The notes beneath the pieces are model-generated. The model was not told the origin of the DNA and did no database searches. It was given only the letters and a program-made list of their open reading frames with translations. 36,055 bases of DNA from a virus. Its lineage: Duplodnaviria; Caudoviricetes. This document shows, piece by piece, positions 14,501 through 36,055 of this stretch. The DNA lies in the IMG/VR virus record IMGVR_UViG_3300044638_005324, positions 1 through 36,055 of that record; one strand, given 5' to 3'. The translations under genes and the position numbers were made by a program. How positions within the stretch are numbered: position 1 is the stretch's first letter; each line of letters begins with the position of its first letter.

Positions 14501-14836
14501 GCTGACCCTAAATTATCAAATAACCTTTCATCAGATTTTTACACAAGTCGTGATAATTTGAAAAGAGCTAGGTCTGAGTATATTGATAAAAAAATACCTT
14601 TACCAAATTGGTATGATGAAAGATTATATCAAGCAATTTTTTCACAAGCAAACAACTCTGTTAGTAAAAGACTTACTCAATTAAGAAATGCTTACACAAA
14701 AATTTCAATGAACAAAGAATTAGATTTAAAGACTAAAACTAAGAAGCAAAAAGAAATCCAAGAGTTAATAAACAAAACATATATTGATTGGAATAACGCA
14801 ATGTATAGAGCAGGTGTTCCAAATAAAAAATATTAA
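8564..14836 (+). CDS. Large 2090-aa virion/ejection protein with a C-terminal LPD38-like region
   Basis: C-terminal ENMNRVAAF...ITTDFTVKG...FFPY...DDPDYQRLS..EKYRNLII...FIKIP...SPMKIDYLLRSFGG resembles large polyvalent protein domain 38 (recalled). Confidence 0.7.
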   Translation: MADYNFKSPILQKVYSQQPGSTMRPGITNQPQPKEFKSNILRQVYGQEITQPTVPQAPTMPEEEPGFLGRTLRALPKPILKALSSDSFLVKSPLKPIADKILPAGFGKESERLRKRFIDSTTFGLTGEVDKILGKNIDYRDARSLSDDKLGSVLDGASTIAGYFVPGLGWLKGVKALGLGAKSIPALSKGASLSQKTGRLGKVAAQQAKEGMAIGLGISATEVGVRESLNPQDYTAKENINYIGQNVLMGLALDPLAYGVFRGISKLKQKLSKPQIDLSTETGEMIPPVDFKLPQPNELNEQVFKDLFDLNVTKDEVDRIKTALLSEFNLQRMKKAEEDYVKINELTPEEQYAFQEKMYETVFAHEIARYIRQEELEKTFGKLKIDDKDYSDYKTAAEKRYERKIKELEELDAQKQREIKKQAKSEITSTFRELPRANKQLMQKIKQLEKENIFADLKEETITAPQLTSTVPQLTSTVPQLTSRRRSTKTASSKLLPTPTTTVSSEQLPFISQDVSVPLTTTKPTKTTVDSKQTSKKENQFNYIGKSGNLVPTEGKVYNFRNGEKGFYFKARDLYYIAKEDGTVLSNGKTLKEATSNFYKSPKAESNISQAKAVTSQKKQLETTVENFTVFNRMTEKQEVAAFKKIKGINEEINLQNRQNKYYRYNTKSGNFELKEVRGSKEGKEYVIRDMDGNVLSKGKDRFGAFYKLNEPFLNDAKKDIPEYIQNRYSQEGKIRSIESNQTYQQKKADINTQNRKEFLENENLISVIVKSKDGKKFTTTEVKPYSIDRTSVYYLVDKKNKFNIIDYFEKRIIATGDTLQDAVSAYKTEMAKRVEIIKAEDLKKRREIEAAARGEREAARLRDKELPKPRDASKQIVIDAEQSNIKKYSEEVQSKIKLARKFLSQLKKEYDDNGYSIPNVRQENEKFLNELSRINDRLFVLKSQYQESLSLLKQNLEFNETVLSQSERKIFSEIEDLKKEILNTQKELQKARTSFVESYTKGTEEQSNEKIDSDYKKTIQETEKNSILYQSMEEFDINANKDILPENRFRIIDNVTKKEKIVDGKKTKINNLDILFTKNNNKVQAYDYKSGVLIEESETLDSLKTVLNDIIKMRGEKELLSRIVKNFGAFRNELFVKGASIEKELTDIFKGQIRSRVLPYYTPKEIFVMSKYGSWLIQTGFTKSSLWALKMIQKFGNFIRPYLNKIFKNSKNLFEDKISETDLQSKVIKEEKTSQEIKKFEEKKLPVSTDKNIPQEIKNKIVRPDSEMPSQQMNAKSNKFVIDFIDRLSPIKLLSDKIYDLVSDSVRSVNLANNSVYKRQVDLEGRDLGKSLLEILEPVSDNLEEFSRYIVYRASKPRLLKNDQVAYEDKLLNFDEVDSYVKNIEENNPNIALAGLEWNTFFKNIRDILEKENVFTKERLAELEKEFPDYAPLTRDFDEKTSFSILQKIKEGGSKRNVFEPIVTVMEQQVRLYNFLLKNRANQELLSQIYKNPKKFEDLGIKVGKVIDSSEKVDLVKSLQDYEKNKVIKVRQNGKVIPISFDNDDIFNAMINYSSAERSAIINAAEEFTKAVKRSATGVLAPLWSIKGTVMDTSRAIINSDNPMLHLGYLLKASVAPFAPKGSALRKMQEAFEFSGNGMSAALRDSKESRIGSLDFGKSLASKVKRKIQVLNPLSSQSFWGQTADYFENMNRVAAFNFKLDQLKGELTPENIRIASEYARKITTDFTVKGKKSMEMEKFFPYTTASIAGTTQLLRKMKDNPIKTAGIFGATLVMPKLMEFSNFGDDPDYQRLSSREKYRNLIIGKNSEGKFIKIPLDPQFGIVSQLIVETIDAYKNGNPKAYRDAMKELTNIYLPPPVSGMLEGLNKSGKELFNVRESLKGVSKATSLSSVVSVMTNESFTGAPIESLEFQLSSIRPGLRYNEKTSPYAKFIGKYTDFSPMKIDYLLRSFGGDFARYGLPLSADVGSFKAQDFLRNFIADPKLSNNLSSDFYTSRDNLKRARSEYIDKKIPLPNWYDERLYQAIFSQANNSVSKRLTQLRNAYTKISMNKELDLKTKTKKQKEIQELINKTYIDWNNAMYRAGVPNKKY
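9950..10012 (+). repeat. 21-bp tandem repeat x3 (TAPQLTS/TVPQLTS/TVPQLTS)
   Basis: ACAGCTCCACAATTAACTTCA followed by two copies of ACAGTTCCGCAATTAACTTCA, in frame. Confidence 0.95.
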
Positions 14837-16340: not shown

Positions 16341-16541
16341 ATGAAAAACAGATTAAAAAATTATGCACTTTGGATTTCAATTTCTTCATTTATTTTTATG
16401 ATTATTCAGAACTCAGGTTTACAAATAACTCCTGAATCTTGGAATTTATACGTAAACTCGATACTAGGTATCTTTATATTACTCGGAATAGTCAATAATC
16501 CAACAACCGATAACAAAGGTTTTGGTGACGACAAGGAGTGA
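16341..16541 (+). CDS. Phage holin (Bacillota type)
   Basis: MKNRLKNYALWIS...ILGIFILLGIVNNPTTDNKGFGDD, with two TM helices. Confidence 0.85.
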   Translation: MKNRLKNYALWISISSFIFMIIQNSGLQITPESWNLYVNSILGIFILLGIVNNPTTDNKGFGDDKE

Positions 16542-16545
16542 TTTT

Positions 16546-16920
16546 ATGTTAGACAGACACAAAAAATTTATTGAAGAATATATGATTGATGGAAATGGTA
16601 AAGCTGCTTATTTAAGAATATATCCTAATGTATCGGATACTTCAGCAAAAGAAGCAGCTTCAAGACTTTTGAGAAGGGCTGATATAAAAATGGAATTGGA
16701 AAAATTGCAAGATGAAAGAATGAAAAATGTAATGTGGAACGCTGAAGATATAATTTTGCAAATCAAAACAATCGCTCAATCAGAAGGTTCTTCTACTACT
16801 GAAAAGTTAAAAGCATTAGAATTAGGAGCTAAATCTTTAGGTTTATTCAGAGACAAAGTAGAACATTCAGGTTCTGTTTCTATTGTATTGGATAAAGATG
16901 TAGAGGACTGGTCTGAATGA
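16546..16920 (+). CDS. terS: Terminase small subunit
   Basis: RHKKFIEEYMIDGNGKAAYLRIY...AASRLL...KLKALELGAKSLGLFRDKVEHSGSV, typical of Terminase_2. AAGGAG RBS. Confidence 0.88.
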   Translation: MLDRHKKFIEEYMIDGNGKAAYLRIYPNVSDTSAKEAASRLLRRADIKMELEKLQDERMKNVMWNAEDIILQIKTIAQSEGSSTTEKLKALELGAKSLGLFRDKVEHSGSVSIVLDKDVEDWSE

Positions 16921-23951: not shown

Positions 23952-24559
23952 TATTTATTCTCCTTTTTCTTCAACAGGATATCTTGCATTTGTTTATTAG
24001 TTGCACCTTTATTATACATTACTTTGTGCCATTCATCGAACTTATCTTCGACTCCACCAAGTTCAACCCAAAAATCTCTTAAGTTGTAATATCCGTTTTT
24101 GTCGTGGTCTACTCGGTCTTGGTCAGACTTAGATTGATTACGCTCGTCAACGCTTGAATCAGCTTCAGGGTCGTCGCCTGTCGGAATCATAAAGGCTTTC
24201 ATTAAAGCATACTTTTGAGCACCTGTAATGGCTTTATAGACGCCTTTATCACCACTGTCTTGACCTTCTCCATACGAAGTTAGTGACAACTTCTCATCTG
24301 AATCTCCATCGTAAAAAGTAAATTCCATCTCAACTGTGACAATGTTTTCTAAATTACCTTTTGAAGTAGTGTGGATTCTGTTAGTACAAGACTTAACAGA
24401 AGGAATCATAAGAACATTTAGTTTAGCTAGTTCTTCACGAATACGCTCATTTACATCAGCTTCTGTTGCGTATTTATACTTGTGAAACGAGTTGTAACCT
24501 GTCTTCTGAATATACTTCACTTGCTTCATAACTTCTACTAGTTTAGTTATTAATTTCAT
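23951..24559 (-). CDS. erf: ERF-family ssDNA annealing protein
   Basis: KTGYNSFHKYKYA...GEGQDSGDKGVYKAITGAQKYALMKAFMIPTGDDPE. Confidence 0.88.
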   Translation of the reverse strand: MKLITKLVEVMKQVKYIQKTGYNSFHKYKYATEADVNERIREELAKLNVLMIPSVKSCTNRIHTTSKGNLENIVTVEMEFTFYDGDSDEKLSLTSYGEGQDSGDKGVYKAITGAQKYALMKAFMIPTGDDPEADSSVDERNQSKSDQDRVDHDKNGYYNLRDFWVELGGVEDKFDEWHKVMYNKGATNKQMQDILLKKKENK

Positions 24560-24743
24560 GTCTACCTCCATATACTGTTGAAACAGTTCTTATGAATTTT
24601 TCTAACTGTTTTTCATTTGTGAATACCAAACGCACCATTCCGTCTTCTTGTTCAATGTGAATTACCCTCGAACCATCTCCTTCATTGTAAACAATAATAC
24701 TCATTTCTGAATTACTAAATTCATGTGTAGTGTAAGTTATCAT
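24543..24743 (-). CDS. Hypothetical protein
   Basis: GGAGG RBS; packed in the operon. Confidence 0.6.
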   Translation of the reverse strand: MITYTTHEFSNSEMSIIVYNEGDGSRVIHIEQEDGMVRLVFTNEKQLEKFIRTVSTVYGGRHEINN

Positions 24744-24747
24744 TTTT

Positions 24748-24960
24748 TTATTCCTCCATTTCGAAAATGTCTTCTACTGAACATCCAAAAAATTTAGCCA
24801 TTTTTAATGCTGTCATGATATTGACGCCTAATCCATTCTCTACTTTATAAATTGTGACTGCAGTTAATCCTAATGCATCGGCTAATTGTTTTTGTGTTAA
24901 ATCAAATCCCTTGCTTCGTCTTAAATACTTGAGATTGTTTTTTAATTTCATTTTTATCAC
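24748..24960 (-). CDS. XRE/Cro-like HTH regulator
   Basis: LKNNLKYLRR...LTQKQLADALGLTAVTIYKVENG...ALKMAKFFGCSVEDIF; first gene after the promoter. The start is probably 24951. Confidence 0.85.
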   Translation of the reverse strand: MIKMKLKNNLKYLRRSKGFDLTQKQLADALGLTAVTIYKVENGLGVNIMTALKMAKFFGCSVEDIFEMEE

Positions 24961-24973
24961 CTCCTATACATGT

Positions 24974-25003
24974 ATATTAACATACTGTTATTATTCTTGT
25001 CAA
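24974..25003 (-). promoter_or_regulatory. SigA-type promoter for the recombination/replication operon
   Basis: TTGACA-N18-TAATAT with a TGn extended -10, directly upstream of the AGGAGGTG RBS. Confidence 0.6.
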
Positions 25004-25123
25004 CGCATATTATTATTTTTTTATAAATAAAAATTTGTTAAATCTAACATTTAGGACTATTTTATTTTTGAGTGGGAAGTGGTAGAATTTAGTTATAAAA
25101 TACAAAAACAAGTTGGTGATACT

Positions 25124-25360
25124 GTGGATAAAGTGAATCCGAGTCATTATAAAAATGGAAAAATAGAATGTATCGACGCTATTGAATCAGCTACTCATTA
25201 CTTGACAGGTTTTGATGGGTATTGCGTCGGCAACATTATTAAATATGTTTGGAGATATGACACAAAAAATGGTTTGGAAGACCTTTACAAAGCACGATGG
25301 TATTTGGAAAAACTAATTAAAGAACATGAGGAGCTGAAGAATGAGATACATTCAAGCTGA
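25124..25360 (+). CDS. DUF3310 / T7 gp1.7-like protein
   Basis: VNPSHYKNGKIECIDAIE...GNIIKYVWRY..KNGLEDLYKARWYL. Confidence 0.88.
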   Translation: MDKVNPSHYKNGKIECIDAIESATHYLTGFDGYCVGNIIKYVWRYDTKNGLEDLYKARWYLEKLIKEHEELKNEIHSS

Positions 25361-26126
25361 CATTAAAGACAGTGTAGATGAAATAGTCATTTTCCCAATC
25401 GGCGATTTGCATATCGGCTCACCTCACTTCGAGAGAAAAATACTTGAAAAACAATTAAAAGAAATTGATAAGACCAAGAATGCAAGAATAATCTTGATGG
25501 GCGATTTAGCTGAAATGAGTACGAAAACATCTGTCGGAGCGGGTGTTTACGAACAAGACCAAAATGGGCAGCAGCAGATGATGTTGGCGAAATCCATATT
25601 TTACCCTTACAAAGACATCATTGACTGCATTGTAGGTGGCAATCACGAAGAGAGAATTAAAAAAGATTCAGGATTTGATTTATCTTTATATTTTGCTCAA
25701 CTTATGGGACTTGAAGAAAAATACGCTAATTACCAAGGTGTTGTAAAGTACACAATAAATCAAAGAAGTTTCGATGTTTCTGTGTGGCATGGTGCGGGTG
25801 GTGGCTCTACATCGGGTGGTGCAATGAATCGTCTCATGAAACAATCCCTTACTGTATTCGCTGATATATACTTGATGGGTCACGTACATCAAAGACAAGC
25901 ATCTTCAAAACAAATATATGTACCTGACAATCGAAACGACAAAATCGATTTGATGCAACAATACTTCGTGGTTACAGGCTCTGCTTTGAGTCACGAACAT
26001 AGTTATGCAGAGATGGCAGGATTCGCACCATCGAATACAGGATTCCCTAAGATTCATCTTTCAATAAGCCGTAAAATAATTGACGGACATAAGCTAAGAA
26101 GTAAAGAAGTGAGGGTTGAAATATGA
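25341..26126 (+). CDS. Calcineurin-like metallophosphoesterase
   Basis: GDLH, MGD, GNHE, WHG and GHVH motifs. Confidence 0.9.
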   Translation: MRYIQADIKDSVDEIVIFPIGDLHIGSPHFERKILEKQLKEIDKTKNARIILMGDLAEMSTKTSVGAGVYEQDQNGQQQMMLAKSIFYPYKDIIDCIVGGNHEERIKKDSGFDLSLYFAQLMGLEEKYANYQGVVKYTINQRSFDVSVWHGAGGGSTSGGAMNRLMKQSLTVFADIYLMGHVHQRQASSKQIYVPDNRNDKIDLMQQYFVVTGSALSHEHSYAEMAGFAPSNTGFPKIHLSISRKIIDGHKLRSKEVRVEI

Positions 26127-26269
26127 CGGAAGGCGAATATTACACTTTTGTTTTGCTACTTAACGAACTTAAAAAGTTTCCTGATGTCAATCAATCACAT
26201 ATTAGTTATATTGAAAAACAAATTCAAAGTATAAATATCACAAGTTTAAGGGGAGATTCCATTGGCTAA
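26123..26269 (+). CDS. 48-aa hypothetical protein
   Basis: MTEGEYYTFVLLLNELKKFPD...; ATGA overlap; not in the ORF track. Confidence 0.55.
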   Translation: MTEGEYYTFVLLLNELKKFPDVNQSHISYIEKQIQSINITSLRGDSIG

Positions 26270-26426
26270 ATTTATAAGCACGGATGATTGGGCTGACTAT
26301 TTGCATGAGGGACTAATCTCACAAGGAATAGTCCCCGACGAAGATATGATAATGCTCATAATTGATTTGACATTAGACTTCTTTGAAAGTGAAGAAGTTA
26401 TTGATTTTACTTTGGATATTGAATAG
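26262..26426 (+). CDS. 54-aa acidic protein, YozD-like
   Basis: TTG start after GGGGAG. MAKFISTDDWADYLHEGLISQGIVPDEDMIMLIIDLTLDFFESEEVIDFTLDIE resembles the Bacillus YozD pattern (recalled). Confidence 0.55.
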   Translation: MAKFISTDDWADYLHEGLISQGIVPDEDMIMLIIDLTLDFFESEEVIDFTLDIE

Positions 26427-26434
26427 TCCAAAAA

Positions 26435-26578
26435 CTACAAAAGCTTTTTTAATGAATCAATATCAACTGAATCATAAAGTTCAAACACAATAACTGGACA
26501 CATGTTGCATTTCCAAACGTGTGTTTCTTTTCCTAGTAGATTATATTCTAATTCTTCTTCACATGCAGGACATTTCAT
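26435..26578 (-). CDS. 47-aa Zn-ribbon protein
   Basis: MKCPACEEELEY...WKCNMCP...; GGAGG RBS; ATGA overlap; not in the ORF track. Confidence 0.65.
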   Translation of the reverse strand: MKCPACEEELEYNLLGKETHVWKCNMCPVIVFELYDSVDIDSLKKLL

Positions 26579-26796
26579 AGTATCATCTCCTCCAATTCAA
26601 TAATCTCTTGCAGTTTCTCTGAAGCATACTCACCTACATCACCATGTTCATAATACTCGTAGTCGTCGTAGATGGTGTTAGCTAACTCCATAACACCTTT
26701 GAAATCTAAATTATTAAACTTGTTCGTCTTTCCAATCTCATAGACAATTTGTGCAATGTACTTCGAATCATTGTATAAATCTTGATAGTGTGACAT
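26575..26796 (-). CDS. Hypothetical acidic early protein
   Basis: AAGGAG RBS. Confidence 0.65.
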   Translation of the reverse strand: MSHYQDLYNDSKYIAQIVYEIGKTNKFNNLDFKGVMELANTIYDDYEYYEHGDVGEYASEKLQEIIELEEMIL

Positions 26797-26854
26797 GTTA
26801 ACATCTCCTTTTTTTATAAGCGTTTTTGAATGGAACGCTCTAAACCATGGATAA

Positions 26855-27013
26855 TTATTTAATTCCTTTTTCTTTTAACGCATCAATTATAATTAGCAAT
26901 GCTTTGGAAAAACCTATTTCATATGCCTGTATTTCGCTTTCTGACCAATCCTGTTCAATAAATAATCTTTTCTTTTCTAAATCTAATTCCTCAATAATCT
27001 TATTAGTGTCCAT
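26855..27013 (-). CDS. 52-aa hypothetical protein
   Basis: MDTNKIIEELDLEKKRLFIEQDWSESEIQAYEIGFSKALLIIIDALKEKGIK; AGGAGG RBS; not in the ORF track. Confidence 0.65.
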   Translation of the reverse strand: MDTNKIIEELDLEKKRLFIEQDWSESEIQAYEIGFSKALLIIIDALKEKGIK

Positions 27014-27022
27014 TTCTTCCTC

Positions 27023-27265
27023 CTATAAATTATTTTCATGGTCATTCAACAATCCAAAATCAATAGAACGTATTTCGATTTCATCATCGAATGACACTAT
27101 CGACCAAGCACCTTTAGAATGTACGTTTATTAAACATGATTCTAAAACTTCTTCAATAGTTAAATCATCAAATGGTAATTCAATTGTATCCCCACCCTTT
27201 AAGGTGAAGATACAATCATAATAAACAACTTCAACATCTTTCAAATCACAATTAGTTACAATCAT
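27023..27265 (-). CDS. Hypothetical acidic protein
   Basis: ATGA overlap with the upstream gene; GGAG RBS. Confidence 0.6.
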   Translation of the reverse strand: MIVTNCDLKDVEVVYYDCIFTLKGGDTIELPFDDLTIEEVLESCLINVHSKGAWSIVSFDDEIEIRSIDFGLLNDHENNL

Positions 27266-27993
27266 TTAGTCATCTCCACATCTACTACGAATCCTGTTGT
27301 ATCTTTTATAGCTTTTCCTTTTGCATACAAACCTACAACAACATTTTGTGGCTCTGTAAATCTTATGTCGCTATCATCTCCAGTAATAACACGTTTACCC
27401 ATGAAGTATTCGGGTAAATCCTTGCTTCTGAACACCACAGCCATTCTCATATTGTTTTGTAATGCTTGTTCAACGAATGGTCTGAATGCCTTTGTACCAC
27501 TATAACTAAATGTCAAATCGTAGTTTGGTATTGATGTATCTCTTTTGGATATTTTAGTGTAGTCATAGAATTGTACGTCGGGAAACAATTCAAATATGTT
27601 TTTGTAAGTTTTACCTTCATGTTCCACTTCGTATTTTTCCCAAACAATGTCGCTAGTCCCATTTAATCTAACTGCTAATTTTTTATCAAAGTGAAGTGCT
27701 TCTAACTTTGATTTATTTATATCGAATACTAAATCCTTGAAGAAACGAACTTTATCGTGATGAAATAATAATGTCTTTCTTAGTCTACCTTGAATGACTG
27801 TTGACATACGACCTCTACCTGCATGATACAAACATGTCTTGTCTAGTCCACATCCTGCAATTTTAGCGAATGGACATAGGTCAACTACTTCAGAGAAATC
27901 TGATGGCGTTAAGTAAAGAACCATTGTATGATACCCATACTTCTCACCTTTTATTGTCTTTGCGTTGTTGCTAGTTAGTAATGCTTTGTACAT
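27262..27993 (-). CDS. Gp88-like protein (degenerate radical-SAM-like Cys motif)
   Basis: LCPFAKIAGCGLDKTCLYHAGRG...VRLNGTSDI.WE...FYDYTK...YDLTFS...GDDSDIRF...VVGLYAKG. Confidence 0.65.
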   Translation of the reverse strand: MYKALLTSNNAKTIKGEKYGYHTMVLYLTPSDFSEVVDLCPFAKIAGCGLDKTCLYHAGRGRMSTVIQGRLRKTLLFHHDKVRFFKDLVFDINKSKLEALHFDKKLAVRLNGTSDIVWEKYEVEHEGKTYKNIFELFPDVQFYDYTKISKRDTSIPNYDLTFSYSGTKAFRPFVEQALQNNMRMAVVFRSKDLPEYFMGKRVITGDDSDIRFTEPQNVVVGLYAKGKAIKDTTGFVVDVEMTK

Positions 27994-27994
27994 A

Positions 27995-28201
27995 TTAATC
28001 AATCTCCTCTACATTAAAGTTTGGTTTTACCCAATGGTAATAAACACATACTGAATCACAAAAATATTCGCCATCAACTATCACGTGACTATGACCTTCA
28101 TAAATCTCATTACCACATGGACAATCATCTAAATGCTCCGCTTCCTCTTCATGCAATGGAATATCATAATATCTATCTGTGTTCGGTTCATCGTAGCTCA
28201 T
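27995..28201 (-). CDS. Small Cys-rich (Zn-binding) protein
   Basis: CPCGNEIYEG...DGEYFCDSVC; GGAGGTG RBS. Confidence 0.7.
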   Translation of the reverse strand: MSYDEPNTDRYYDIPLHEEEAEHLDDCPCGNEIYEGHSHVIVDGEYFCDSVCVYYHWVKPNFNVEEID

Positions 28202-28364
28202 TCAATTCACCTCCTTCCATTAGTTTATCTAAAGCATTCAACAATTTAGTTCTTCTTTTATTTAATTCGATGCTTACAAAATCAAAGGTATACTTTCTAG
28301 ATTCTATGAGTATTATCTTTTCGTTCAATTCATCTATTTCTTTAACCAATTCTTTGATAGTCAT
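28188..28364 (-). CDS. 58-aa coiled-coil hypothetical protein
   Basis: MTIKELVKEIDELNEKIILIESRKY...; GGAGGT RBS; not in the ORF track. Confidence 0.6.
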   Translation of the reverse strand: MTIKELVKEIDELNEKIILIESRKYTFDFVSIELNKRRTKLLNALDKLMEGGELNELR

Positions 28365-28407
28365 TATTAAACCTCCGATGATTTTTTATTTTTATAAAGA
28401 TTTGCAC

Positions 28408-28668
28408 TCATTGAACATTCACGTTCCCACTTTTGAAGTAATTTCTGTAATAGATATACGTTGAATAAACATCTCTTTCCCATTCAAACAAATCCTCACT
28501 TGTGAAGTAATTTCTGTAATAGATACATGTCGAATAAACATCTTTGTTCCTCATTTGTTTCCTTACAAACGTCGAAGCAATTCTTTTGATTTGTGTATTA
28601 TCCGCATAAAAAGACTTTACAAAAACACCATTAATAAATATTACAGCATACATATATAATACCTCCAA
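28408..28668 (-). CDS. Hypothetical protein with an internal duplication
   Basis: DVYSTCIYYRNYF / DVYSTYIYYRNYF. The start is probably 28653 (GGAGGT RBS). Confidence 0.6.
   Translation of the reverse strand: MEVLYMYAVIFINGVFVKSFYADNTQIKRIASTFVRKQMRNKDVYSTCIYYRNYFTSEDLFEWERDVYSTYIYYRNYFKSGNVNVQ
28434..28543. repeat. 41-bp direct repeat x2 (69-bp period)
   Basis: 28434-28474 vs 28503-28543, with three transition differences. Confidence 0.9.
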
Positions 28669-28679
28669 TTTTATATTAG

Positions 28680-28790
28680 TTATCTCTTAATCCAATTGAC
28701 CAGTAAGCCACAAACGGAGACCAATAATAAGAAAAACCCAACAATAGATATCAAAGATAAAAAACCTAATAATAACGCTACGACAATCAT
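28680..28790 (-). CDS. 36-aa single-TM peptide
   Basis: MIVVALLLGFLSLISIVGFFLLLVSVCGLLVNWIKR after GGGAGGT; not in the ORF track. Confidence 0.55.
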   Translation of the reverse strand: MIVVALLLGFLSLISIVGFFLLLVSVCGLLVNWIKR

Positions 28791-28862
28791 ACTTTACTAC
28801 ACCTCCCAAAGCTTCCCATATCCATGCTAGAAACATATTAAACCTCCTTTCGGAGAACCGAA

Positions 28863-29084
28863 TTAACGGCTCTCCTTTATTAATTTTAAATGCTCATTGT
28901 TAATCAGCGACATGAACTCTACTATTTGTTCTTCGGTCATGAACAAAGTAAAGTCACCTTGTGACATGTAATCTCTTGTTGCACTTACTGAAATCGAAAC
29001 AACAGTTTTACCTGATACTTCGAATTTTCTCATTCCTACTTCAAATGAGTTATCCTTCAGATGCATAGATGATGACATTGACAT
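28863..29084 (-). CDS. Hypothetical early protein
   Basis: AAGGAGGTG RBS. Confidence 0.7.
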   Translation of the reverse strand: MSMSSSMHLKDNSFEVGMRKFEVSGKTVVSISVSATRDYMSQGDFTLFMTEEQIVEFMSLINNEHLKLIKESR

Positions 29085-29085
29085 A

Positions 29086-29286
29086 TTAATTCACCTCCTT
29101 CATTAGGTTATTATAAACTTCTACTACTTCTTCATAGCATGTTTCAGCTATGTACTCTAAAATCTCTTCATAAGGTTCATCGGGAACCCCATCGACTATC
29201 CATTGATAATAGATGTCTTCATCACCTATATCAATAATATTGTCGTGCATCGTTACTAACATTGCTACCTTCTCTTGTACTGTCAT
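29086..29286 (-). CDS. Acidic early protein downstream of hammerhead B
   Basis: GAGGAGG RBS; IGDEDIYYQWIVDGVPDEP. Confidence 0.75.
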   Translation of the reverse strand: MTVQEKVAMLVTMHDNIIDIGDEDIYYQWIVDGVPDEPYEEILEYIAETCYEEVVEVYNNLMKEVN

Positions 29287-29309
29287 TTTAATTCCTCCTC
29301 ATAATTACT

Positions 29310-29359
29310 GACCTCGTCAGGTAGTGCTATACACTACTACGTCTCACGACGTTTCGGTC
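29310..29359 (-). ncRNA. Type II hammerhead ribozyme B
   Basis: Minus strand: GACC GAAA CGUC-GUGA-GACG UA^ GUAGUG-UAUAG-CACUAC CUGACGA GGUC. The core is complete, all three stems are Watson-Crick, and the cleavage triplet is GUA. Confidence 0.93.
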
Positions 29360-29361
29360 TA

Positions 29362-29580
29362 TTAATCTTTCCAAAACTCTTTGTATATATCACTTCTTGC
29401 CATCTCTGTATGATTACGTAAGATAACCCAGTAATCAAACAAGCTAGTTAATTGCTTACCTTGGAATCCTAATGACTCCATGTATTCGTAAATCTTTGAC
29501 ATGTTGTACTCCAATGCTTCCATGGTCATTAAGAATTCATGTTCATCCATCTTACTCAATTCTTTGCCATTGTATTTCAT
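29362..29580 (-). CDS. Hypothetical early protein (between the two ribozymes)
   Basis: MKYNGKELSKMDEHEF...; GGGGG RBS; the stop codon is 2 nt before hammerhead B. Confidence 0.7.
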   Translation of the reverse strand: MKYNGKELSKMDEHEFLMTMEALEYNMSKIYEYMESLGFQGKQLTSLFDYWVILRNHTEMARSDIYKEFWKD

Positions 29581-29582
29581 GT

Positions 29583-29792
29583 CTAATTCCCCCATTCCCA
29601 TGATTCTAGGATAGTTATGCAATCAGTGTAGAAAGAGCCTTCAGTAACTCCACAATGTCTAGCTGAGATACTACCATCTTTCTCAGCAAAGAACTGAACT
29701 TCAGCTTCCTGAAGTTCTGAATACACGGTCATAGAACCGTTTTTAATAATTGTTGCAGGATTGTATTCAATCCCAAGGTAGTAATAATTCAT
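29583..29792 (-). CDS. Hypothetical early protein downstream of hammerhead A
   Basis: GAGGAGG RBS. Confidence 0.7.
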   Translation of the reverse strand: MNYYYLGIEYNPATIIKNGSMTVYSELQEAEVQFFAEKDGSISARHCGVTEGSFYTDCITILESWEWGN

Positions 29793-29818
29793 GTCTAATT
29801 CCTCCTCTTATTACTGAT

Positions 29819-29868
29819 GTCCTCATCAGCTAGTGCTATACACTAGGACGCTTCACAGCGTTTCGGAC
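29819..29868 (-). ncRNA. Type II hammerhead ribozyme A
   Basis: Minus strand: GUCC GAAA CGCU-GUGA-AGCG UC^ CUAGUG-UAUAG-CACUAG CUGAUGA GGAC. The core is complete and the cleavage triplet is GUC. Confidence 0.93.
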
Positions 29869-29875
29869 TGTTTAG

Positions 29876-29921
29876 GTACTTACTAATTAACTAGTTAATT
29901 AACTAATTAATTAGTAAATAC
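29876..29921. repeat. 46-bp near-perfect AT-rich palindrome
   Basis: GTACTTACTAATTAACTAGTTAA|TTAACTAATTAATTAGTAAATAC, with two mismatched pairs. Confidence 0.85.
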
Positions 29922-29940
29922 TCAATGAGCATTTACTTAT

Positions 29941-29983
29941 AAAAAAAAAAAAAAAAAAGAAAAACCTTAGCTTACGCTAAGGT
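29941..29983 (-). terminator. Intrinsic terminator with a very long U tract
   Basis: ACCUUAGC-GUAA-GCUAAGGU followed by UUUUC and U18. The stop codon of the upstream gene lies in the loop. Confidence 0.85.
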
Positions 29984-30295
29984 CACTGATACAAAGTAGA
30001 ATCTTCTGTTATCTTCTCTAATAACTTGTAACAATTCCTCTTTGTTACTTACACAAACGAATCTTGCTTTGCCTTTATATCCATAGTTGAATCTAACACT
30101 CTTACCTAATTCAAAGTGCTTACCAACTTCTATAAGAGCTTCAGTATGAACACCAGCTTTAACCGTCTCAGTAGTTAGTCCTTTTACAGCTAACTTGATA
30201 GTAATAGGCTTATACTTCTCTTTAGGAGCAATAACTTTATAACCTAAATTCACTAACACTTCAATTGCTTTTTGTTCTTGAGATACTTTAGACAT
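29972..30295 (-). CDS. First early gene, basic hypothetical protein
   Basis: MSKVSQEQKAIEVLVNLGYKVIAP...; K/V-rich; the RBS is weak, so the start is uncertain (30313 possible). Confidence 0.65.
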   Translation of the reverse strand: MSKVSQEQKAIEVLVNLGYKVIAPKEKYKPITIKLAVKGLTTETVKAGVHTEALIEVGKHFELGKSVRFNYGYKGKARFVCVSNKEELLQVIREDNRRFYFVSVTLA

Positions 30296-30349
30296 ATACA
30301 CACAACCAATCATAAGAGAGTCGGCGAGTCGTCCTCAACCGCTGACCAC

Positions 30350-30378
30350 AGTATGGCACAAAAAGTTTTCGATTTCAT
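30350..30378 (-). promoter_or_regulatory. Putative early promoter
   Basis: ATGAAA-N17-CATACT with a TGTG extended -10, just upstream of the first - strand gene. Confidence 0.45.
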
Positions 30379-30383
30379 GCAAG

Positions 30384-30514
30384 TTATCCACAGAGTTATC
30401 CACAGCTGCAATGAGTGTTATTCAGGGTTGTCCACAACTGTCAACTATAAGTCCTGTGCATAAGTGCCATATTCCACTAAAATTGTGGATAACTATAGAT
30501 AAGCATGTGCATAA
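30384..30514. promoter_or_regulatory. Cluster of six DnaA boxes
   Basis: TTATCCACA at 30384 and 30396, TTGTCCACA at 30428, TGTGCATAA at 30455, TGTGGATAA at 30484, TGTGCATAA at 30506. Confidence 0.8.
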
Positions 30515-30742
30515 GTCCTTGAGCAAAGAAATACCATTTCCTTCCAAAAGTTTGTATAGTGTAGGGTTTTTAATGTATAGTGTTTGCTTGTTAAGATATA
30601 AATATATATATAGTAATTACAGATATAGACCCATGTCACCCATACAGGCGTCCATGGTTTATTATTATTACATCATATACAAATTGACACTTTACCTTTA
30701 TCCCAATAATTTCCAGTAAATAGACATAAAAAAAGACGAAAT

Positions 30743-30777
30743 CCCTTTCCCCTCCCTTACAATCCCTCCCCTATCCC
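30743..30777 (-). other. G-quadruplex-forming motif
   Basis: Minus strand GGG-ATA-GGGG-A-GGG-ATTGTAA-GGG-A-GGGG-AAA-GGG (six G tracts). Confidence 0.6.
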
Positions 30778-30782
30778 TAAAC

Positions 30783-30823
30783 TCATTTGAACTTAATCAT
30801 TTGAATTTAATCTTTTGAACTTA
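30783..30823. repeat. 14-bp tandem repeat x3
   Basis: TCATTTGAACTTAA TCATTTGAATTTAA TCTTTTGAACTTA. Confidence 0.8.
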
Positions 30824-31000
30824 TCTTTTAATTATTTAAATACTAAATACATTCGACATTAAAGATACGATATCCTTCTAACAAAAGTATTATAGATGTG
30901 AACAATTTGTGAACACTATAAAACATTGATAAATAAAAGAGGAAGAGGTAAAATGAAACAAAGAAGTCCAAAAAAAATTTTTTGAAAAAATGAGGTAAAC

Positions 31001-32383
31001 ATGAAAATAGCTATTAACCCTTACCCAAGACAGATAGAGTTCTTTAAGAGTAAAGCTAGGTACATTGCATACGGAGGTGCTAGAGGTGGAGGCAAGTCAT
31101 GGGCAGCACGTATGAAGGCAGTGTTACTTGCGATTCGTTACGATGGCGTACAGATACTTCTGCTGAGACGTTCATTAAAAGAGTTACGAGAAAACCACGT
31201 TCTCCCGCTTCAAAAGGTATTAAAAGAAATTGCTCACTTCTCAGAAATGAATAAAGAGTTTTCTTTTAAGAATGGTTCTCGTATCGTACTTGGTTACTGT
31301 TCAACTGAGTCAGATGTGCTTCAGTATCAAGGACAAGCATATGATGTTATTTTCTTGGAAGAAGCTACGCAATTTACGGAAATGCAGTTCCGTACATTTA
31401 CAGAATCTAATCGTTCAAGTGGACAGATGAAAGAAAGATTTTCACCACGGATGTACTTTACTTGTAACCCAGGCGGAGTTGGTCATAACTGGGTAAAACG
31501 ACTATTCATTGATAAAGTCTACATTGGTAAGGAAAAAGCAGAGAACTATCATTTCGTTAAGTCCACAGTTTATGACAATAAGTATTTGATGGAGAATAAC
31601 CCTGAATATGTAGAAAACTTAGAAAACCTTCCCGATGCACGTAAACGAGCCATGTTGTATGGAGATTGGGATGCTTTCGAAGGACAATACTTTGAAGAGT
31701 TTAGTCACGATGTACATGTGTGCGATGCTTTTGAAATTCCTCAATACTGGGACAAATACGTTTCATTAGATTACGGATTAGATATGTTAGCAGTATATTG
31801 GTACGCCACCGACTCTCAAGGAAACACATTTGCTTACAGAGAGTTCTGTGAACCTAATTTAATTATTAGTGATGCTTGTAAACGCATATTATCTTTAACC
31901 AAAGAACAAATCAAAACATTTTACGCACCACCTGACTTATGGAACAGAAGACAAGATACAGGTAAGAGTGCAGCAGAGGTCTTTCAAGAGAATGGAATCT
32001 TTTTAACTAAGTCTAATAATGATAGAATACAGGGATGGTATAACGTAAAAGAATGGCTGCAAGTTTTAAAAGTCAAAGATGAACAAACTGGTGAGGAGAA
32101 AAATAGTACACGCTTGAAAATTTGGAAGAATTGTGCTATCCTTATTAAGAATTTACCATTACTACAACATGATGACAAAAAACCTAATGATATTTCAAAT
32201 GAACCTCACGAAATCACTCATAGCCCCGATGCATTGCGGTATTTTTGCTCAATGCGTACACCACCATCACAAAAAACTGTCGCAAAAGCCGTAAAAGGTG
32301 CGTTTGATAAATTCTTTAAAGAAGATACAGCGAATGAATATCAAATACATGACAGTTACGTTAAATATGGAGGTTGGAAATGA
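31001..32383 (+). CDS. terL: Terminase large subunit
   Basis: Walker A YGGARGGGKS, Walker B IFLEEA, TCNPGG, and nuclease motifs SLDYG and THSPDALRY. Confidence 0.95.
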   Translation: MKIAINPYPRQIEFFKSKARYIAYGGARGGGKSWAARMKAVLLAIRYDGVQILLLRRSLKELRENHVLPLQKVLKEIAHFSEMNKEFSFKNGSRIVLGYCSTESDVLQYQGQAYDVIFLEEATQFTEMQFRTFTESNRSSGQMKERFSPRMYFTCNPGGVGHNWVKRLFIDKVYIGKEKAENYHFVKSTVYDNKYLMENNPEYVENLENLPDARKRAMLYGDWDAFEGQYFEEFSHDVHVCDAFEIPQYWDKYVSLDYGLDMLAVYWYATDSQGNTFAYREFCEPNLIISDACKRILSLTKEQIKTFYAPPDLWNRRQDTGKSAAEVFQENGIFLTKSNNDRIQGWYNVKEWLQVLKVKDEQTGEEKNSTRLKIWKNCAILIKNLPLLQHDDKKPNDISNEPHEITHSPDALRYFCSMRTPPSQKTVAKAVKGAFDKFFKEDTANEYQIHDSYVKYGGWK

Positions 32384-32625
32384 GTTATTCTTTTGAAATT
32401 ATTATCTTTTTACTATTGATAGTTAACATTTTAATTAATTTGTACATTTATAAAGAAATTATTCTTAACTTCACAAAAAAAGAACAACCTATTTATATAG
32501 AAAAACAAGTTGAACTCAAAACAAACAAAACAAAAAACAAAGAAGAGTCAGAAGAAGATAAAATCATAAGTGGTCTGAACAACCTATTAGTATATGATGG
32601 CAGTCCGACTTCCAAAAAGGAGTAA
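32380..32625 (+). CDS. Small protein with an N-terminal TM helix
   Basis: Hydrophobic N-terminus; ATGA overlap with terL; GGAGGT RBS; C-terminal GLNNLLVYDGS. Confidence 0.65.
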   Translation: MSYSFEIIIFLLLIVNILINLYIYKEIILNFTKKEQPIYIEKQVELKTNKTKNKEESEEDKIISGLNNLLVYDGSPTSKKE

Positions 32626-32628
32626 TAG

Positions 32629-34350
32629 ATGGCTAAAAAACCTTCTCCTTCATTTAATTCACAAGAAACAGAAGAATGGAAACAGTATCAAGCGGGTATA
32701 GACTACAACCACAAAATAGATTTATACCAAACAGTAAATAAAAATGAGCGTTTTTATGCAGGTGACCAATGGAATGGTGTCGTTTCAAACGGACTTCCAA
32801 CACCTGTTTTCAACATATTAAAAAGAATTATTAATTACTTCGTCTCCTCTATTTTGAGTCAAAATGTTACCATGCACTTTGTACCTGAAGCAGTAAGTGC
32901 TGAAACTCCTGAAGATGAAGAGAAACTTAAAAAAGCTGCACAATTAATTAGTGATTATTCAACAACACTTTGGGAAAAAAACAAAATGAATTTTAAACTT
33001 CGTCAATGGTTATTGGATGCAGCAGTAAGCGGAGATGCGTGTGGTTACATATATTGGAATGCAAACATCGATGCAGGACAAGCAGCTAAAGGTGATATTG
33101 ATGTAGACAGAATTGACAATGTAAATGTATTTTTTGGTGACCCAAACGAAAAAGAAGTTCAGAAACAAAGATACATCATTATATCAGCTCGTGAGTTAGT
33201 AGCTAACTTACAAGATGAAGCTAGAGCAAATGGAATATCAGAAGATGAAATTTTAAAAATCGGTTCAGATGAAGAAACATTTTATCAATCAGGTGACCGC
33301 TCACAGATACAGTTAGACTATCGTTTCGATGGGTTTGGAAAAACAACTTCATTAATTAAGATGTACAAAAAAGACGGAAAAATTTTTGCTAAAAAGATTA
33401 CTAAGTTCACAACGATTCGTAAAGAGTGGGATACCAAACTTACTCTGTATCCTGTAACTTTGATGAATTGGGATGTACGCAAGAACTCCTATCATGGACA
33501 AGCACTTGTGACTGGAATTATCCCTAACCAAATTTTCATTAACAAAATGTTCGCAATGGCAATGATGTCGTTGATGCACACTGCTTTCCCTAAAGTAATA
33601 TACAATAAAAATATGATTACAGCTTGGAACAATCAAATCGGTGCAGCAATCGGAATTGAAAGAATGGGTAACGAATCTGTTGGAAACGTAGCTCAATACC
33701 TAAACCCTGGAACTATGTCAGGTCAAGTTATGCAAACGATTGATTTAGCTATTAACTATACAAAAGACATGCTAGGTGCTAACGATAACTTGCTAGGAGA
33801 CATTAACCCCGAAAGAGCATCGGGTCGTTCGATTATAGCGGTTCAACAAGCATCTGCGGTACCATTAGAAAATATCAAACAAAACATGTATCAATTCTTA
33901 GAAGACATGGGTTATATATGGTTGGATTACATCACTAACTATTACGGAACTCGGAAGATTGATGCTGAAATATTAGGTCAAAGACAAATCGTTGAATTTA
34001 ATTTTGATGATATTAAGAACATGAAGTTCCGTTTAAAGATTGAAGTTGGTGCTTCTTCTTACTGGTCTGAACTTGCTTCGATTGAAACTTTAGATAGATT
34101 GTTGCAACAAGAAGCAATTACATTCAAACAATACCTAGAGAGAATACCAACAGGATTAATTGCACAAAAACAATCATTGCTTGAAGAAATTAAAGGTGAA
34201 GATACTAGAAAACAGTTTATATATGAACAGTTGGCTAGATTCTTAGAAACACTTCCTCCAGAACAACAACAACAAATTCAACAGTTATCTCCTGAAGAAC
34301 AAGAAGCACAGTTAATGAATATGATGATGCAAGGTGGTGAAATGCAGTGA
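32629..34350 (+). CDS. Portal protein (P22-like)
   Basis: NERFYAGDQW...PVFNILKRIINY...SGRSIIAVQQAS; 573 aa; lies between terL and the scaffold gene. Confidence 0.88.
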   Translation: MAKKPSPSFNSQETEEWKQYQAGIDYNHKIDLYQTVNKNERFYAGDQWNGVVSNGLPTPVFNILKRIINYFVSSILSQNVTMHFVPEAVSAETPEDEEKLKKAAQLISDYSTTLWEKNKMNFKLRQWLLDAAVSGDACGYIYWNANIDAGQAAKGDIDVDRIDNVNVFFGDPNEKEVQKQRYIIISARELVANLQDEARANGISEDEILKIGSDEETFYQSGDRSQIQLDYRFDGFGKTTSLIKMYKKDGKIFAKKITKFTTIRKEWDTKLTLYPVTLMNWDVRKNSYHGQALVTGIIPNQIFINKMFAMAMMSLMHTAFPKVIYNKNMITAWNNQIGAAIGIERMGNESVGNVAQYLNPGTMSGQVMQTIDLAINYTKDMLGANDNLLGDINPERASGRSIIAVQQASAVPLENIKQNMYQFLEDMGYIWLDYITNYYGTRKIDAEILGQRQIVEFNFDDIKNMKFRLKIEVGASSYWSELASIETLDRLLQQEAITFKQYLERIPTGLIAQKQSLLEEIKGEDTRKQFIYEQLARFLETLPPEQQQQIQQLSPEEQEAQLMNMMMQGGEMQ

Positions 34351-34478
34351 AAGATATGAAAAACAAAGTAGGAATGATGATGGCTGTGATGATGGGTAAA
34401 AAGCCAACAAAAGCATCTGTAAAGAAAACAGCTTCAAGAACAATTGGCAAATCGTATGCAAAAGGTAAAAAAATGTAA
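34347..34478 (+). CDS. 43-aa K/M-rich basic peptide
   Basis: GTGA overlap with the portal stop; MKDMKNKVGMMMAVMMGKKPTKASVKKTASRTIGKSYAKGKKM; not in the ORF track. Confidence 0.55.
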   Translation: MKDMKNKVGMMMAVMMGKKPTKASVKKTASRTIGKSYAKGKKM

Positions 34479-34483
34479 TACAT

Positions 34484-34590
34484 TGTATTACTGTGGGAGA
34501 CACCACGTTAAAATACAGAGTTAAACTTCCTTAGCTAGTTATTGAAATTTAAAGCTAAGACCAAATTTTGCTCACCATAGCAAAGGAGAT
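34484..34590 (+). promoter_or_regulatory. Structured leader of the scaffold gene
   Basis: TGTATT/AATACA encloses GTGG-GAGACA-CCAC; CTTAGCT/AGCTAAG hairpin; TTTGCT-CACCAT-AGCAAA hairpin abuts the GGAG RBS. Confidence 0.45.
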
Positions 34591-34594
34591 TATC

Positions 34595-35353
34595 ATGGAA
34601 ACGATGTTAGATGACAACCAAATCATCGAAAATGAAATAGGAACAAATATTGAAAACGAGGGTTCGGAAAATATATCTCAAGAAGATTATCTTGAAATTA
34701 AATATAATAAAGAATCCTTACGTTTAGATAAGGAAAAAGCTCGTGAGTTAGCTCAAAAGGGCATGAATTACGAGAAAGCTGTAGAAAGAGCAAGACAAGA
34801 AGCACGTGATGCGTATATTGCTGAACAAGGATATGAATGGGAAGGTCGTTCCATTACAACTGAAACGGAATATAGAGAAGCATTGCGAGAACAAGAACTT
34901 CTTCAGCAATATCAGAGCTATGATGTACCTGAAGAAATTGTTCAAGAATTAATTGAAAACAAAAAGTTTCGTGAAAAATACGAAACTGAGCAACAACGTG
35001 TTGAACGTGAAAAATCTCAAGAACAAGATTTCCAATATTTTTTAGAAACTTATCCAGACGTAAAAGCAGAAGAAATACCCGCTTCAGTTTGGCAAGAAGT
35101 AGAAAATGGTAAGTCTTTAATTGATGCTTACATGAAACACGAAAATAAGATTTTAAAAGAACAATTAGGCAAAACCAATAAATTAGAAACTATTTCTCAA
35201 CGTAATCAAGAAAATGCATCTGCTTCGATTGGTGCTATTAAATCTAATGGAGAATCTGCACCTTTCTTTACTAAAGAACAAGTTTCTAAAATGAACACTA
35301 AAGAAGTAAACAAAAATTGGAAGTCAATAAATGAATCCATGAAAAAATGGTAG
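34595..35353 (+). CDS. Capsid scaffolding protein
   Basis: Acidic coiled-coil protein (ELAQKGMNYEK; FLETYPDVKAEEIP; FFTKEQVSKM...WKSINESMKKW) directly upstream of the coat gene. Confidence 0.8.
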   Translation: METMLDDNQIIENEIGTNIENEGSENISQEDYLEIKYNKESLRLDKEKARELAQKGMNYEKAVERARQEARDAYIAEQGYEWEGRSITTETEYREALREQELLQQYQSYDVPEEIVQELIENKKFREKYETEQQRVEREKSQEQDFQYFLETYPDVKAEEIPASVWQEVENGKSLIDAYMKHENKILKEQLGKTNKLETISQRNQENASASIGAIKSNGESAPFFTKEQVSKMNTKEVNKNWKSINESMKKW

Positions 35354-35367
35354 AGGAGAAATTATAA

Positions 35368-36055
35368 ATGTCAATTTCAAATTTTATTCCACAAATATGG
35401 TCTACAAAAATCCTTCGTACATTAGAAGACAATCTAGTAGGTAAACGCATCTGTACTTTAGACGCAGAGGGCGAAATCAAAAAATTCGGAGATACTGTAA
35501 TTTTTAACGGACTTGCAGACCCAACAATCAGTTCGTATTCAGGTGCAAGTATTTCTTACGAAGCACTTCAAGATGCTTCTGTTGTATTACAAATCAGTCA
35601 ACAAGATTATTTCGCATTTAAAGTTGGAGATATTGAAAAGGCACAAGCTAATGTCGATGTTAAAGGTAGCCAGGCTGACCGAGCTGCTTATAAACTACAA
35701 CAAACTGCAGATAGTTACATTCTTGGATTGTATGGACAAGCAGGATTAACTTCTAGCGGAACAATTACTTCTGCTAATATCTTTTCCAAAGTTGGAGAAG
35801 TACAACAATCTCTTGCACAAAACAACGTATCTGATTCAGATATGTGGATGGTTATTCCTCCTTGGATTCGTTTGAAATTAGAACTTGCTGGTGTTAAATT
35901 CCAAGTTAATAATGGTACAAATGGTACAGGCGGAATGGCTTGGACTGATTCTCTTGGATTTGATATCTATGTAACTAATCAAGTAGCAAATACTGGTACT
36001 TTAGCAACACCTGTTTCGAAAGTATTAGCTGGTTCTTACAATTCAATTGCATTCG
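35368..36055 (+). CDS. Major capsid protein, P22-coat-like (5' part; continues through the junction to 276; 278 aa in total)
   Basis: ATG at 35368 after GAGGAG. Reads MSISNFIPQIWSTKILRTLEDNLVG...GEIKKFGDTV... and is open to the window end, in frame with the 7..276 ORF. It follows the scaffold gene and is missing from the supplied ORF track. Confidence 0.9.
   Translation, partial: MSISNFIPQIWSTKILRTLEDNLVGKRICTLDAEGEIKKFGDTVIFNGLADPTISSYSGASISYEALQDASVVLQISQQDYFAFKVGDIEKAQANVDVKGSQADRAAYKLQQTADSYILGLYGQAGLTSSGTITSANIFSKVGEVQQSLAQNNVSDSDMWMVIPPWIRLKLELAGVKFQVNNGTNGTGGMAWTDSLGFDIYVTNQVANTGTLATPVSKVLAGSYNSIAF
35929..36055. repeat. Terminal direct repeat (right copy)
   Basis: Exact copy of 1-127. 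Confidence 0.95.

Follow-up and report, generated by a model that had tools for sequence, protein, structure and literature searches.

Two type II hammerheads ahead of putative early phage genes represent a pseudoknot-less subclass with a covarying anti-core tail

Two compact motifs on the minus strand of a tailed phage genome, HH1 and HH2, are canonical hammerhead motifs that likely cleave themselves. They represent a pseudoknot-less type II subclass that was undetected here by the Rfam type II model. Both carry a short 3' tail that can pair with the catalytic core, and this anti-core tail, for which covariation with core position N7 is shown across the subclass, appears to be a selected second fold. 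The explanation that we favor, with modest confidence, is that the early RNA is self-cleaved without protein and that the tail most probably closes on the core after the cut, giving a double-hairpin 5' end.

Results

The phage genome and its early region

The window, meaning the whole stretch of DNA analyzed, is an entire phage genome, rated complete: a single 36,055-base contig whose ends overlap by 127 nt. Structural and lysis genes occupy the plus strand; the minus strand, from about 30300 to 18200, carries replication genes and a run of small genes. The ribozyme region is termed "early" as a presumption from this gene content. The genes for the small (16522-16920) and large (31001-32383) terminase subunits are split by the entire 14-kb minus-strand early/replication block, within which lies a plus-strand metallophosphoesterase gene (25341-26126) that is 76-86% conserved among relatives. 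Elsewhere, a 2090-aa protein (8564-14836) has LPD38, a large polyvalent protein domain, close to its C-terminus and is possibly an ejected virion protein, and an 81-aa ORF (28408-28653) harbors a 54-nt direct repeat with 69-nt spacing (28428-28550) that repeats a 23-residue unit. Five DnaA-box-like 9-mers cluster upstream of the early genes at 30384-30514: TTATCCACA at +30384, +30396, and -30492, and TTATGCACA at -30514 and -30463. An additional DnaA-box-like 9-mer is located at -25131.

The closest named match of the terminase is Bacillus phage PK1 (38%), and the genome encodes DnaD-like and DnaC-like loaders as well as M23 and 3D domains. Together with strong GAGGAGG sites, these loaders and domains point to a probable Bacillota host. 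A terminase-based search of GTDB genomes returned 32 candidates, none of them a relative, and thus found no host genome. Neither a blastn search of 28000-31000 against annotated phages nor a metagenome scan with a 25-nt DNA pattern gave a match, and the listing of sequencing runs showed no RNA run holding phage sequence.

Two canonical type II hammerheads

Scanned in full with motif descriptors, the genome yielded exactly two type II hammerheads:

29868-29819, minus strand: HH1, predicted cut at 29847/29846, N17 at 29847 (GUC)
29359-29310, minus strand: HH2, predicted cut at 29338/29337, N17 at 29338 (GUA)

In each, loops close stems I and III and stem II is open, which is the type II permutation. 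Both combine GAAA and CUGAYGA with three short stems: stem I of 6 bp (7 bp if U-G closes) capped by UAUAG, stem II of 4 bp, and stem III of 4 bp capped by GUGA. The two motifs are spaced 509 nt apart. When the sequence was shuffled 200 times with dinucleotide composition retained, both strands together gave six loose matches and no strict ones. Under the descriptors used, the window holds no type I or type III hammerhead. The original prediction had described two complete minus-strand type II hammerheads of this architecture, about 510 nt apart, with these cut sites and with compensatory changes in their stems, and each of these points is borne out. HH1 and HH2 differ at 10 of 50 positions, eight of which form four compensated pairs while the other two are N7 and N17. 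They look like the products of a duplication. Across 66 nt, the two copies are 76% identical. Similarly, both sides change in 10 of the 15 pairs of a 12-sequence alignment that was selected for the type II fold.

The search with Rfam hammerhead models that had been proposed as a check detected neither copy. No hammerhead was reported for the whole window at the gathering score or for 24000-36055 at E<=5, and RF02276 (Hammerhead_II) alone gave no match at E<=10; its fast first look yielded no candidate, and the model threshold is 37 bits. The Rfam scans of the window returned only four weak matches, all unrelated to hammerheads. A pseudoknot between loop I and the 3' tail was considered for both copies and rejected, as the UAUAG loop has no partner in either tail.

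Leaders, flanking genes, and the upstream region

The elements that surround the two hammerheads are, in order of transcription:

29941-29984, minus strand: intrinsic-terminator-like element, a 9-pair hairpin (29984-29963) and a 22-nt U-rich tract
29876-29921, no strand assigned: A+T-rich palindrome of 46 nt whose transcript would fold into a 21-bp hairpin; its end lies 8 nt ahead of HH1
29799-29807, minus strand: Shine-Dalgarno GAGGAGGAA of the first gene, beginning 6 nt past the HH1 tail
29583-29792, minus strand: 69-aa ORF downstream of HH1, no family
29362-29580, minus strand: 72-aa ORF between the ribozymes, its TAA stop ending 2 nt ahead of HH2 stem II
29292-29300, minus strand: Shine-Dalgarno GAGGAGGAA of the gene after HH2, beginning 7 nt past the HH2 tail
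29086-29286, minus strand: 66-aa ORF downstream of HH2, no family; it shares 45% identity across 40 aa with an ORF of the relatives L542 and L543

No family was found in PHROGs, Pfam, or the protein atlas for the ORFs adjoining the ribozymes. From the predicted cuts, the leaders measure 54 nt to the ATG at 29792 (HH1) and 51 nt to the ATG at 29286 (HH2). These distances and the GAGGAGGAA ribosome-binding sites (RBS) are as originally predicted, and so is a product that starts with a hairpin at its first base, given that the first nucleotide is paired in the lowest-energy predicted fold.

The terminator-like hairpin closes a 107-codon ORF, and HH1 begins about 95 nt later. This ORF (29972-30295) has no Shine-Dalgarno, starts about 7 nt past the likely start of a promoter-like site (30338-30309), and is possibly near-leaderless. 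A scan of the gap between the terminator-like hairpin and HH1 found no consensus sigma-70 promoter, so transcripts that include HH1 would either read through the terminator or start at a promoter that departs from the consensus; with such a promoter, HH1 would trim the 5' tip and split nothing. The original proposal was processing of an early polycistron; HH1, which lies behind the terminator-like hairpin, may instead trim a 5' end. The A+T-rich palindrome region stands out in folding (z -6.9), and the palindromes upstream of HH1 are candidates for an operator, an origin element, or a double-stranded RNA substrate. A second, 12-bp palindrome (29915-29939) overlaps the 46-nt one between the terminator and HH1.

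A further proposal, that the ribozymes standardize mRNA 5' ends, found little support. Cutting is predicted to lower Shine-Dalgarno accessibility in HH1 (0.43 to 0.21) and to raise it in HH2 (0.65 to 0.93), the copies are duplication-like, leaders of the class differ in length as described below, and one close relative has only an apparently decayed copy.

A pseudoknot-less subclass in IMG/VR and GTDB

Hundreds of similar motifs occur in IMG/VR. Two scans with no Shine-Dalgarno in the pattern, each covering 6 or 8 of 64 parts, correspond to an estimated 1400 or so and 980 stored stretches, and their samples overlap; the loci of one further scan, which had a Shine-Dalgarno in its pattern, were excluded from all RBS and tail counts. 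The returned loci fold as type II hammerheads in 119/135 and 120/132 cases. In motifs whose flanks are long enough, an ORF with its Shine-Dalgarno and start codon comes within the next 45 nt in 76/131 (two controls, 7 and 8) and 61/134 (controls, 6 and 6). Across the class, the leader from cut to start codon measures 39-81 nt, and its median is 58 nt in one set and 54 nt in the other. Between -12 and +10 nt relative to stem II, an upstream stop is present in 93/172; the control at -100 nt (0/101) is a weak one because compact phage genomes put stops near any intergenic element. Several loci (L299, L300, L177, L178, L222, and L550) carry three to four or more type II hammerheads per 1-2 kb, each between small genes.

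We define the subclass as the 133 motifs with a 17-nt stem-loop I as in HH1 and HH2, a length that the pattern of one scan fixed. The first base of loop I is U in 128/133, A precedes stem II in 130/133, stem II is 4 bp in 124/133, and a loop-tail pseudoknot is possible in 10/133. HH1 and HH2 both show this pattern, with a 6-bp stem I leading into a loop that opens with U and with an A beside stem II. These two bases may make the single tertiary contact of minimal hammerheads, a geometry for which a literature search found no published source; the S5 legend of the 2011 study of type II hammerheads (PMC3088659) mentions U and A contacts. Dataset S1 of the same study holds a type II alignment in which earlier members of the subclass may be present.

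Among GTDB genomes, 8 of 14 pattern matches fold. The folding matches are labeled Acidimicrobiia, Acidobacteria, Polyangiaceae, Chloroflexi, Clostridia, and Paracoccaceae, along with one further bacterium.

A tail predicted to compete with the active core

Folding revealed a feature missed by the original prediction: in both copies, the CUGAY core has its complement in a 3' RUCAG tail. The resulting helices are:

29814-29829, minus strand: HH1 anti-core hairpin, CUGAUG (29829-29824) with CAUCAG (29819-29814), 6 bp, 4-nt loop
29308-29320, minus strand: HH2 anti-core hairpin, CUGAC (29320-29316) with GUCAG (29312-29308), 5 bp, 3-nt loop

The HH1 hairpin is incompatible with stem II and the active core, and the GUCAG strand of HH2 overlaps the 3' strand of stem II. 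Secondary-structure energies, which hold no tertiary terms, are -18.5 (anti-core) versus -16.3 kcal/mol (active) for HH1 and -17.1 versus -16.9 kcal/mol for HH2. The probability of HH1 stem II in ViennaRNA is 0.97 in an RNA ending at stem II and 0.02 with the tail, and HH1 may accordingly cut slowly or rarely; the values for HH2 are 0.76 and 0.45. Across the 55 subclass members with an anti-core helix of at least 5 bp, active minus anti-core energy has a median of +0.3 kcal/mol (quartiles -1.0 to 2.2). Tertiary contacts, which are outside the energy model, should favor the active fold. Given the near-equal fold energies, the tail probably also lowers the fraction cut, and cutting is perhaps incomplete.

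These energies bear on an alternative that we regard as unlikely, in which the tail acts before cleavage: the anti-core helix would be an OFF fold adopted when stem II is delayed or melted, and cutting would be conditional on a ribosome at the upstream stop, transcription speed, or a protein. The mutual exclusion of the anti-core helix and active core, the near balance of the two folds across the 55 members, the loss of stem II in HH1, which is predicted to be mostly closed, and the upstream stop that ends 2 nt before HH2 stem II are all consistent with such a switch. Against it, upstream stops are no commoner with the tail (23/49) than without (29/58; p 0.85), HH1 has the stronger tail helix yet no abutting upstream gene, and no conserved anti-tail element came to notice. 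Neither upstream stops nor an RBS (p 0.70) are enriched with the tail, which led us to reject the tail as a device coupled to upstream translation.

Related phages retain, move, and lose the module

We examined 24 terminase loci. Three carry the ribozymes and are fragments of the same phage, and 21 are without a canonical motif; most of these 21 do not reach the early region. Exact matches to both ribozymes came from three IMG/VR loci, which share 100% identity with the window and were set aside as adding no evidence. Apart from same-phage fragments, the terminase relatives that reach the early region are L134 (72% terminase identity) and L132 (90%). L134 has no hammerhead in 10 kb. The type II layout of L132 (minus strand, 8881-8821) is complete, but core position A9 is G, the first pair of stem III is broken, and N7 is mismatched to the AUCAG tail of this copy; these core, stem, and N7 changes read as decay. 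The decayed copy in L132 and its absence from L134 suggest that the element is dispensable. The ORF upstream of the L132 copy now ends inside the stem III loop of the decayed hammerhead. A GATAG/CTATC hairpin at 9290-9325 of L132 was rejected as a ribozyme substitute; it contains a GAAC-N4-GTTC box and is more likely an operator. L132 has no DnaA-box-like cluster at this place and features seven GAAC-N4-GTTC boxes of LexA type instead, so the relatives may use different host regulators there.

Among seven metagenome relatives found through the phosphoesterase, three carry the same subclass on the same strand and in the same region, and the other four are only 1.3-2.3 kb long. L540 has two copies, L542 and L543 have one identical copy, and each precedes the RBS of a different gene. 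From these comparisons, the ribozyme module appears to be retained in the lineage, yet it moves and is sometimes lost.

Such mobility would be expected of a near-neutral leader cassette, a ribozyme plus RBS that spreads by duplication or recombination among small early genes with its tail inherited or kept by DNA palindrome repair. The variable copy number, position, and downstream gene of the relatives, the apparently decayed L132 copy, and the similarity of the two window copies over 66 nt all speak for this reading. We nonetheless judge it improbable, as the stems are fully compensated and as the tail itself behaves like a selected RNA helix in the respects described below.

The anti-core tail covaries with N7

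Tail counts were made on the IMG/VR sets with no Shine-Dalgarno in the pattern, in which 208 distinct motifs reduce to 188 at 80% clustering (two from the phage itself). An anti-core helix of at least 5 bp is present in 55/120 subclass members and absent from 65/120; when the tails were shuffled 500 times, it arose in 9.4 members on average and in 20 at most. The other 68 type II motifs have it in 6 cases (shuffled mean 2.7, maximum 10).

N7 is the sole free core base within the helix. For motifs whose N7 partner falls outside stem II, the pairs are U-A 12, C-G 15, U-G 0, and C-A 0 (p 6e-8; one C-U case excluded). A further scan, with TCAG fixed and N7 and its partner free, returned 122 loci and 113 distinct folded motifs in 92 loci, on contigs partly shared with the first sets. 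At 80% clustering, 75 of 100 were scorable: U-A 36, C-G 30, U-G 5, C-A 1, U-U 2, and U-C 1 (p 6e-14 for the first four pair types). At 70% clustering, the counts are U-A 30, C-G 22, U-G 5, and C-A 1 (p 3e-10). All covariation p-values count clustered sequences as independent and are thus overstated. GC content was ruled out as the source of the signal, which persists within GC strata (p 1.5e-6 and 9e-6; the lowest stratum has only 6 U-A cases). A 12-sequence alignment selected for TCAG has U-A in 9 and C-G in 3 at the N7 pair, and the remaining five pairs are invariant. In the HH2-like form, AG follows a stem II strand ending in UC in 23/27 versus 16/93 otherwise, with N7 = C in 18/23 versus 21/68.

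Three of these patterns count against a near-neutral cassette: the covariation persists at 70% clustering, with the U-A and C-G states each found with several stem II types; U-G is tolerated above C-A, as expected for RNA pairing; and the kept complement is that of the core only, and only downstream. Anti-CUGA occurs downstream in 53/120 and anti-GAAA upstream in 5/120, which places the anti-core helix wholly within the 3' product. The anti-core helix and the loop-tail pseudoknot, which also lies in the 3' product, are nearly exclusive of each other.

Discussion

If an inactive second fold is selected and lies wholly in the 3' product, then either the shape of the product is selected or the cut is regulated. 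We prefer the former, with the tail closing on the core after cleavage. Stem II would form as the RNA emerges, before the tail is free, and in place of the usual pseudoknot, loop I would contact, through its first U, the A immediately 5' of stem II. Cleavage would leave an upstream piece with the stem III hairpin and a cyclic phosphate at its end and a downstream piece with a 5'-OH on the stem I hairpin at its start. The 4-bp stem II would then dissociate and the tail pair with the core, giving a 5' end of two stacked hairpins that offers a 5' exonuclease little single strand, with the Shine-Dalgarno beginning 6-7 nt beyond. The outcome would be separate small early mRNAs, each with its own lifetime. 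Because a 4-bp intermolecular stem II should dissociate unaided, the tail would be unneeded for an irreversible cut. The original prediction had offered protein-free processing of early RNA as the function of the ribozymes; this stands as the most likely function, although the idea was already published in 2011 (PMC3088659).

A closed 5' end would matter in Bacillus, where RNase J1 can start on 5'-OH RNA: it degrades the glmS product (Laalami et al. 2014, PMC3997798), so a 5'-OH end is not protective in itself. The opposite use of the cut can also be envisaged, in which the 5'-OH product is a decay signal, as in glmS, and is fed to RNase J1 to limit the dose or lifetime of small early proteins. 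Degradation of glmS mRNA after ribozyme cleavage and the Bacillota-like appearance of the phage agree with this alternative. We consider it decidedly unlikely in view of the predicted pairing of the product's first nucleotide, the strong Shine-Dalgarno sequences of the downstream genes, and the same design in genomes labeled Acidobacteria, Polyangiaceae, Chloroflexi, and Paracoccaceae, an occurrence beyond Bacillota that argues against a tie to Bacillota decay enzymes.

Placement ahead of early genes is one more example of a known layout; what the analysis adds is the pseudoknot-less subclass and its covarying anti-core tail. Our literature search, which covered few subscription papers, found no description of such a tail, and a string search of the 11 supplementary files of the 2011 study (PMC3088659) for tail motifs matched only a primer, gapped alignments being of a kind that escapes such a search. 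Since the subclass is missed by the Rfam type II model here, phage ribozyme counts are probably low. Compact natural hammerheads with a self-closing product could also serve as bacterial expression parts. More speculatively, and with limited credence on our part, the subclass may be a natural two-state ribozyme in which the tail locks the core and cleavage of early mRNA, instead of being constitutive, is controlled by transcription or by the passage of ribosomes. If true, this would be a ligand-free conformational switch in the simplest ribozyme, used by phages of many phyla.

Comparison with known systems

RiboJ is an engineered insulator, and T7 early RNA is processed by the host protein RNase III. 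The proposed likeness to these systems is that a cut upstream of an RBS leaves a hairpin-led mRNA and that an early transcript is divided. An insulator role of HH1 and HH2 would be conjectural: leaders of the class range between 39 and 81 nt, and predicted Shine-Dalgarno accessibility differs between the two products.

The closest precedent is the prophage type II hammerheads (RF02276) of Perreault et al. 2011 (PMC3088659), which cluster around prophage genes and were proposed to process polycistrons. Three clustered arrays cleave in vitro, and clustered phage hammerheads also cleave in E. coli. The layout ahead of gene starts and the processing idea are thus already known from that study, and HH1 and HH2 resemble its motifs in the open stem II, the canonical core, the occurrence of multiple copies around single genes or short gene blocks, and the proposed cutting of transcripts. 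As described there, the majority of type II motifs have a pseudoknot and many lack it. HH1 and HH2 differ in having no pseudoknot between loop I and the 3' tail; their tail pairs with the core instead, and RF02276 misses them. The purpose of bacterial and phage hammerheads has been described as undefined (Weinberg et al. 2019, PMC6765202), and later reports describe more genes associated with hammerheads and a case from a eukaryotic virus (Eckert et al. 2023, PMC10085705; PMC13725137).

HHphage of haloviruses HF1 and HF2 likewise directly precedes the first ORF of a polycistronic early transcript, and the early halovirus transcript cited in the 2011 study has a mapped 5' end within 3 nt of the cut (PMC3088659). 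It differs in its variant core with an insertion, its archaeal host, and its 13 nt to the start codon, whereas HH1 and HH2 have canonical cores and 23-26 nt from stem II to the start codon. Finally, the glmS ribozyme (PMC3997798, PMC6765202) also self-cleaves in a bacterial 5' leader and yields a 5'-OH mRNA, as is predicted here. It is metabolite-triggered and destabilizing, whereas HH1 and HH2 have no evident ligand site and their product starts in a predicted hairpin.
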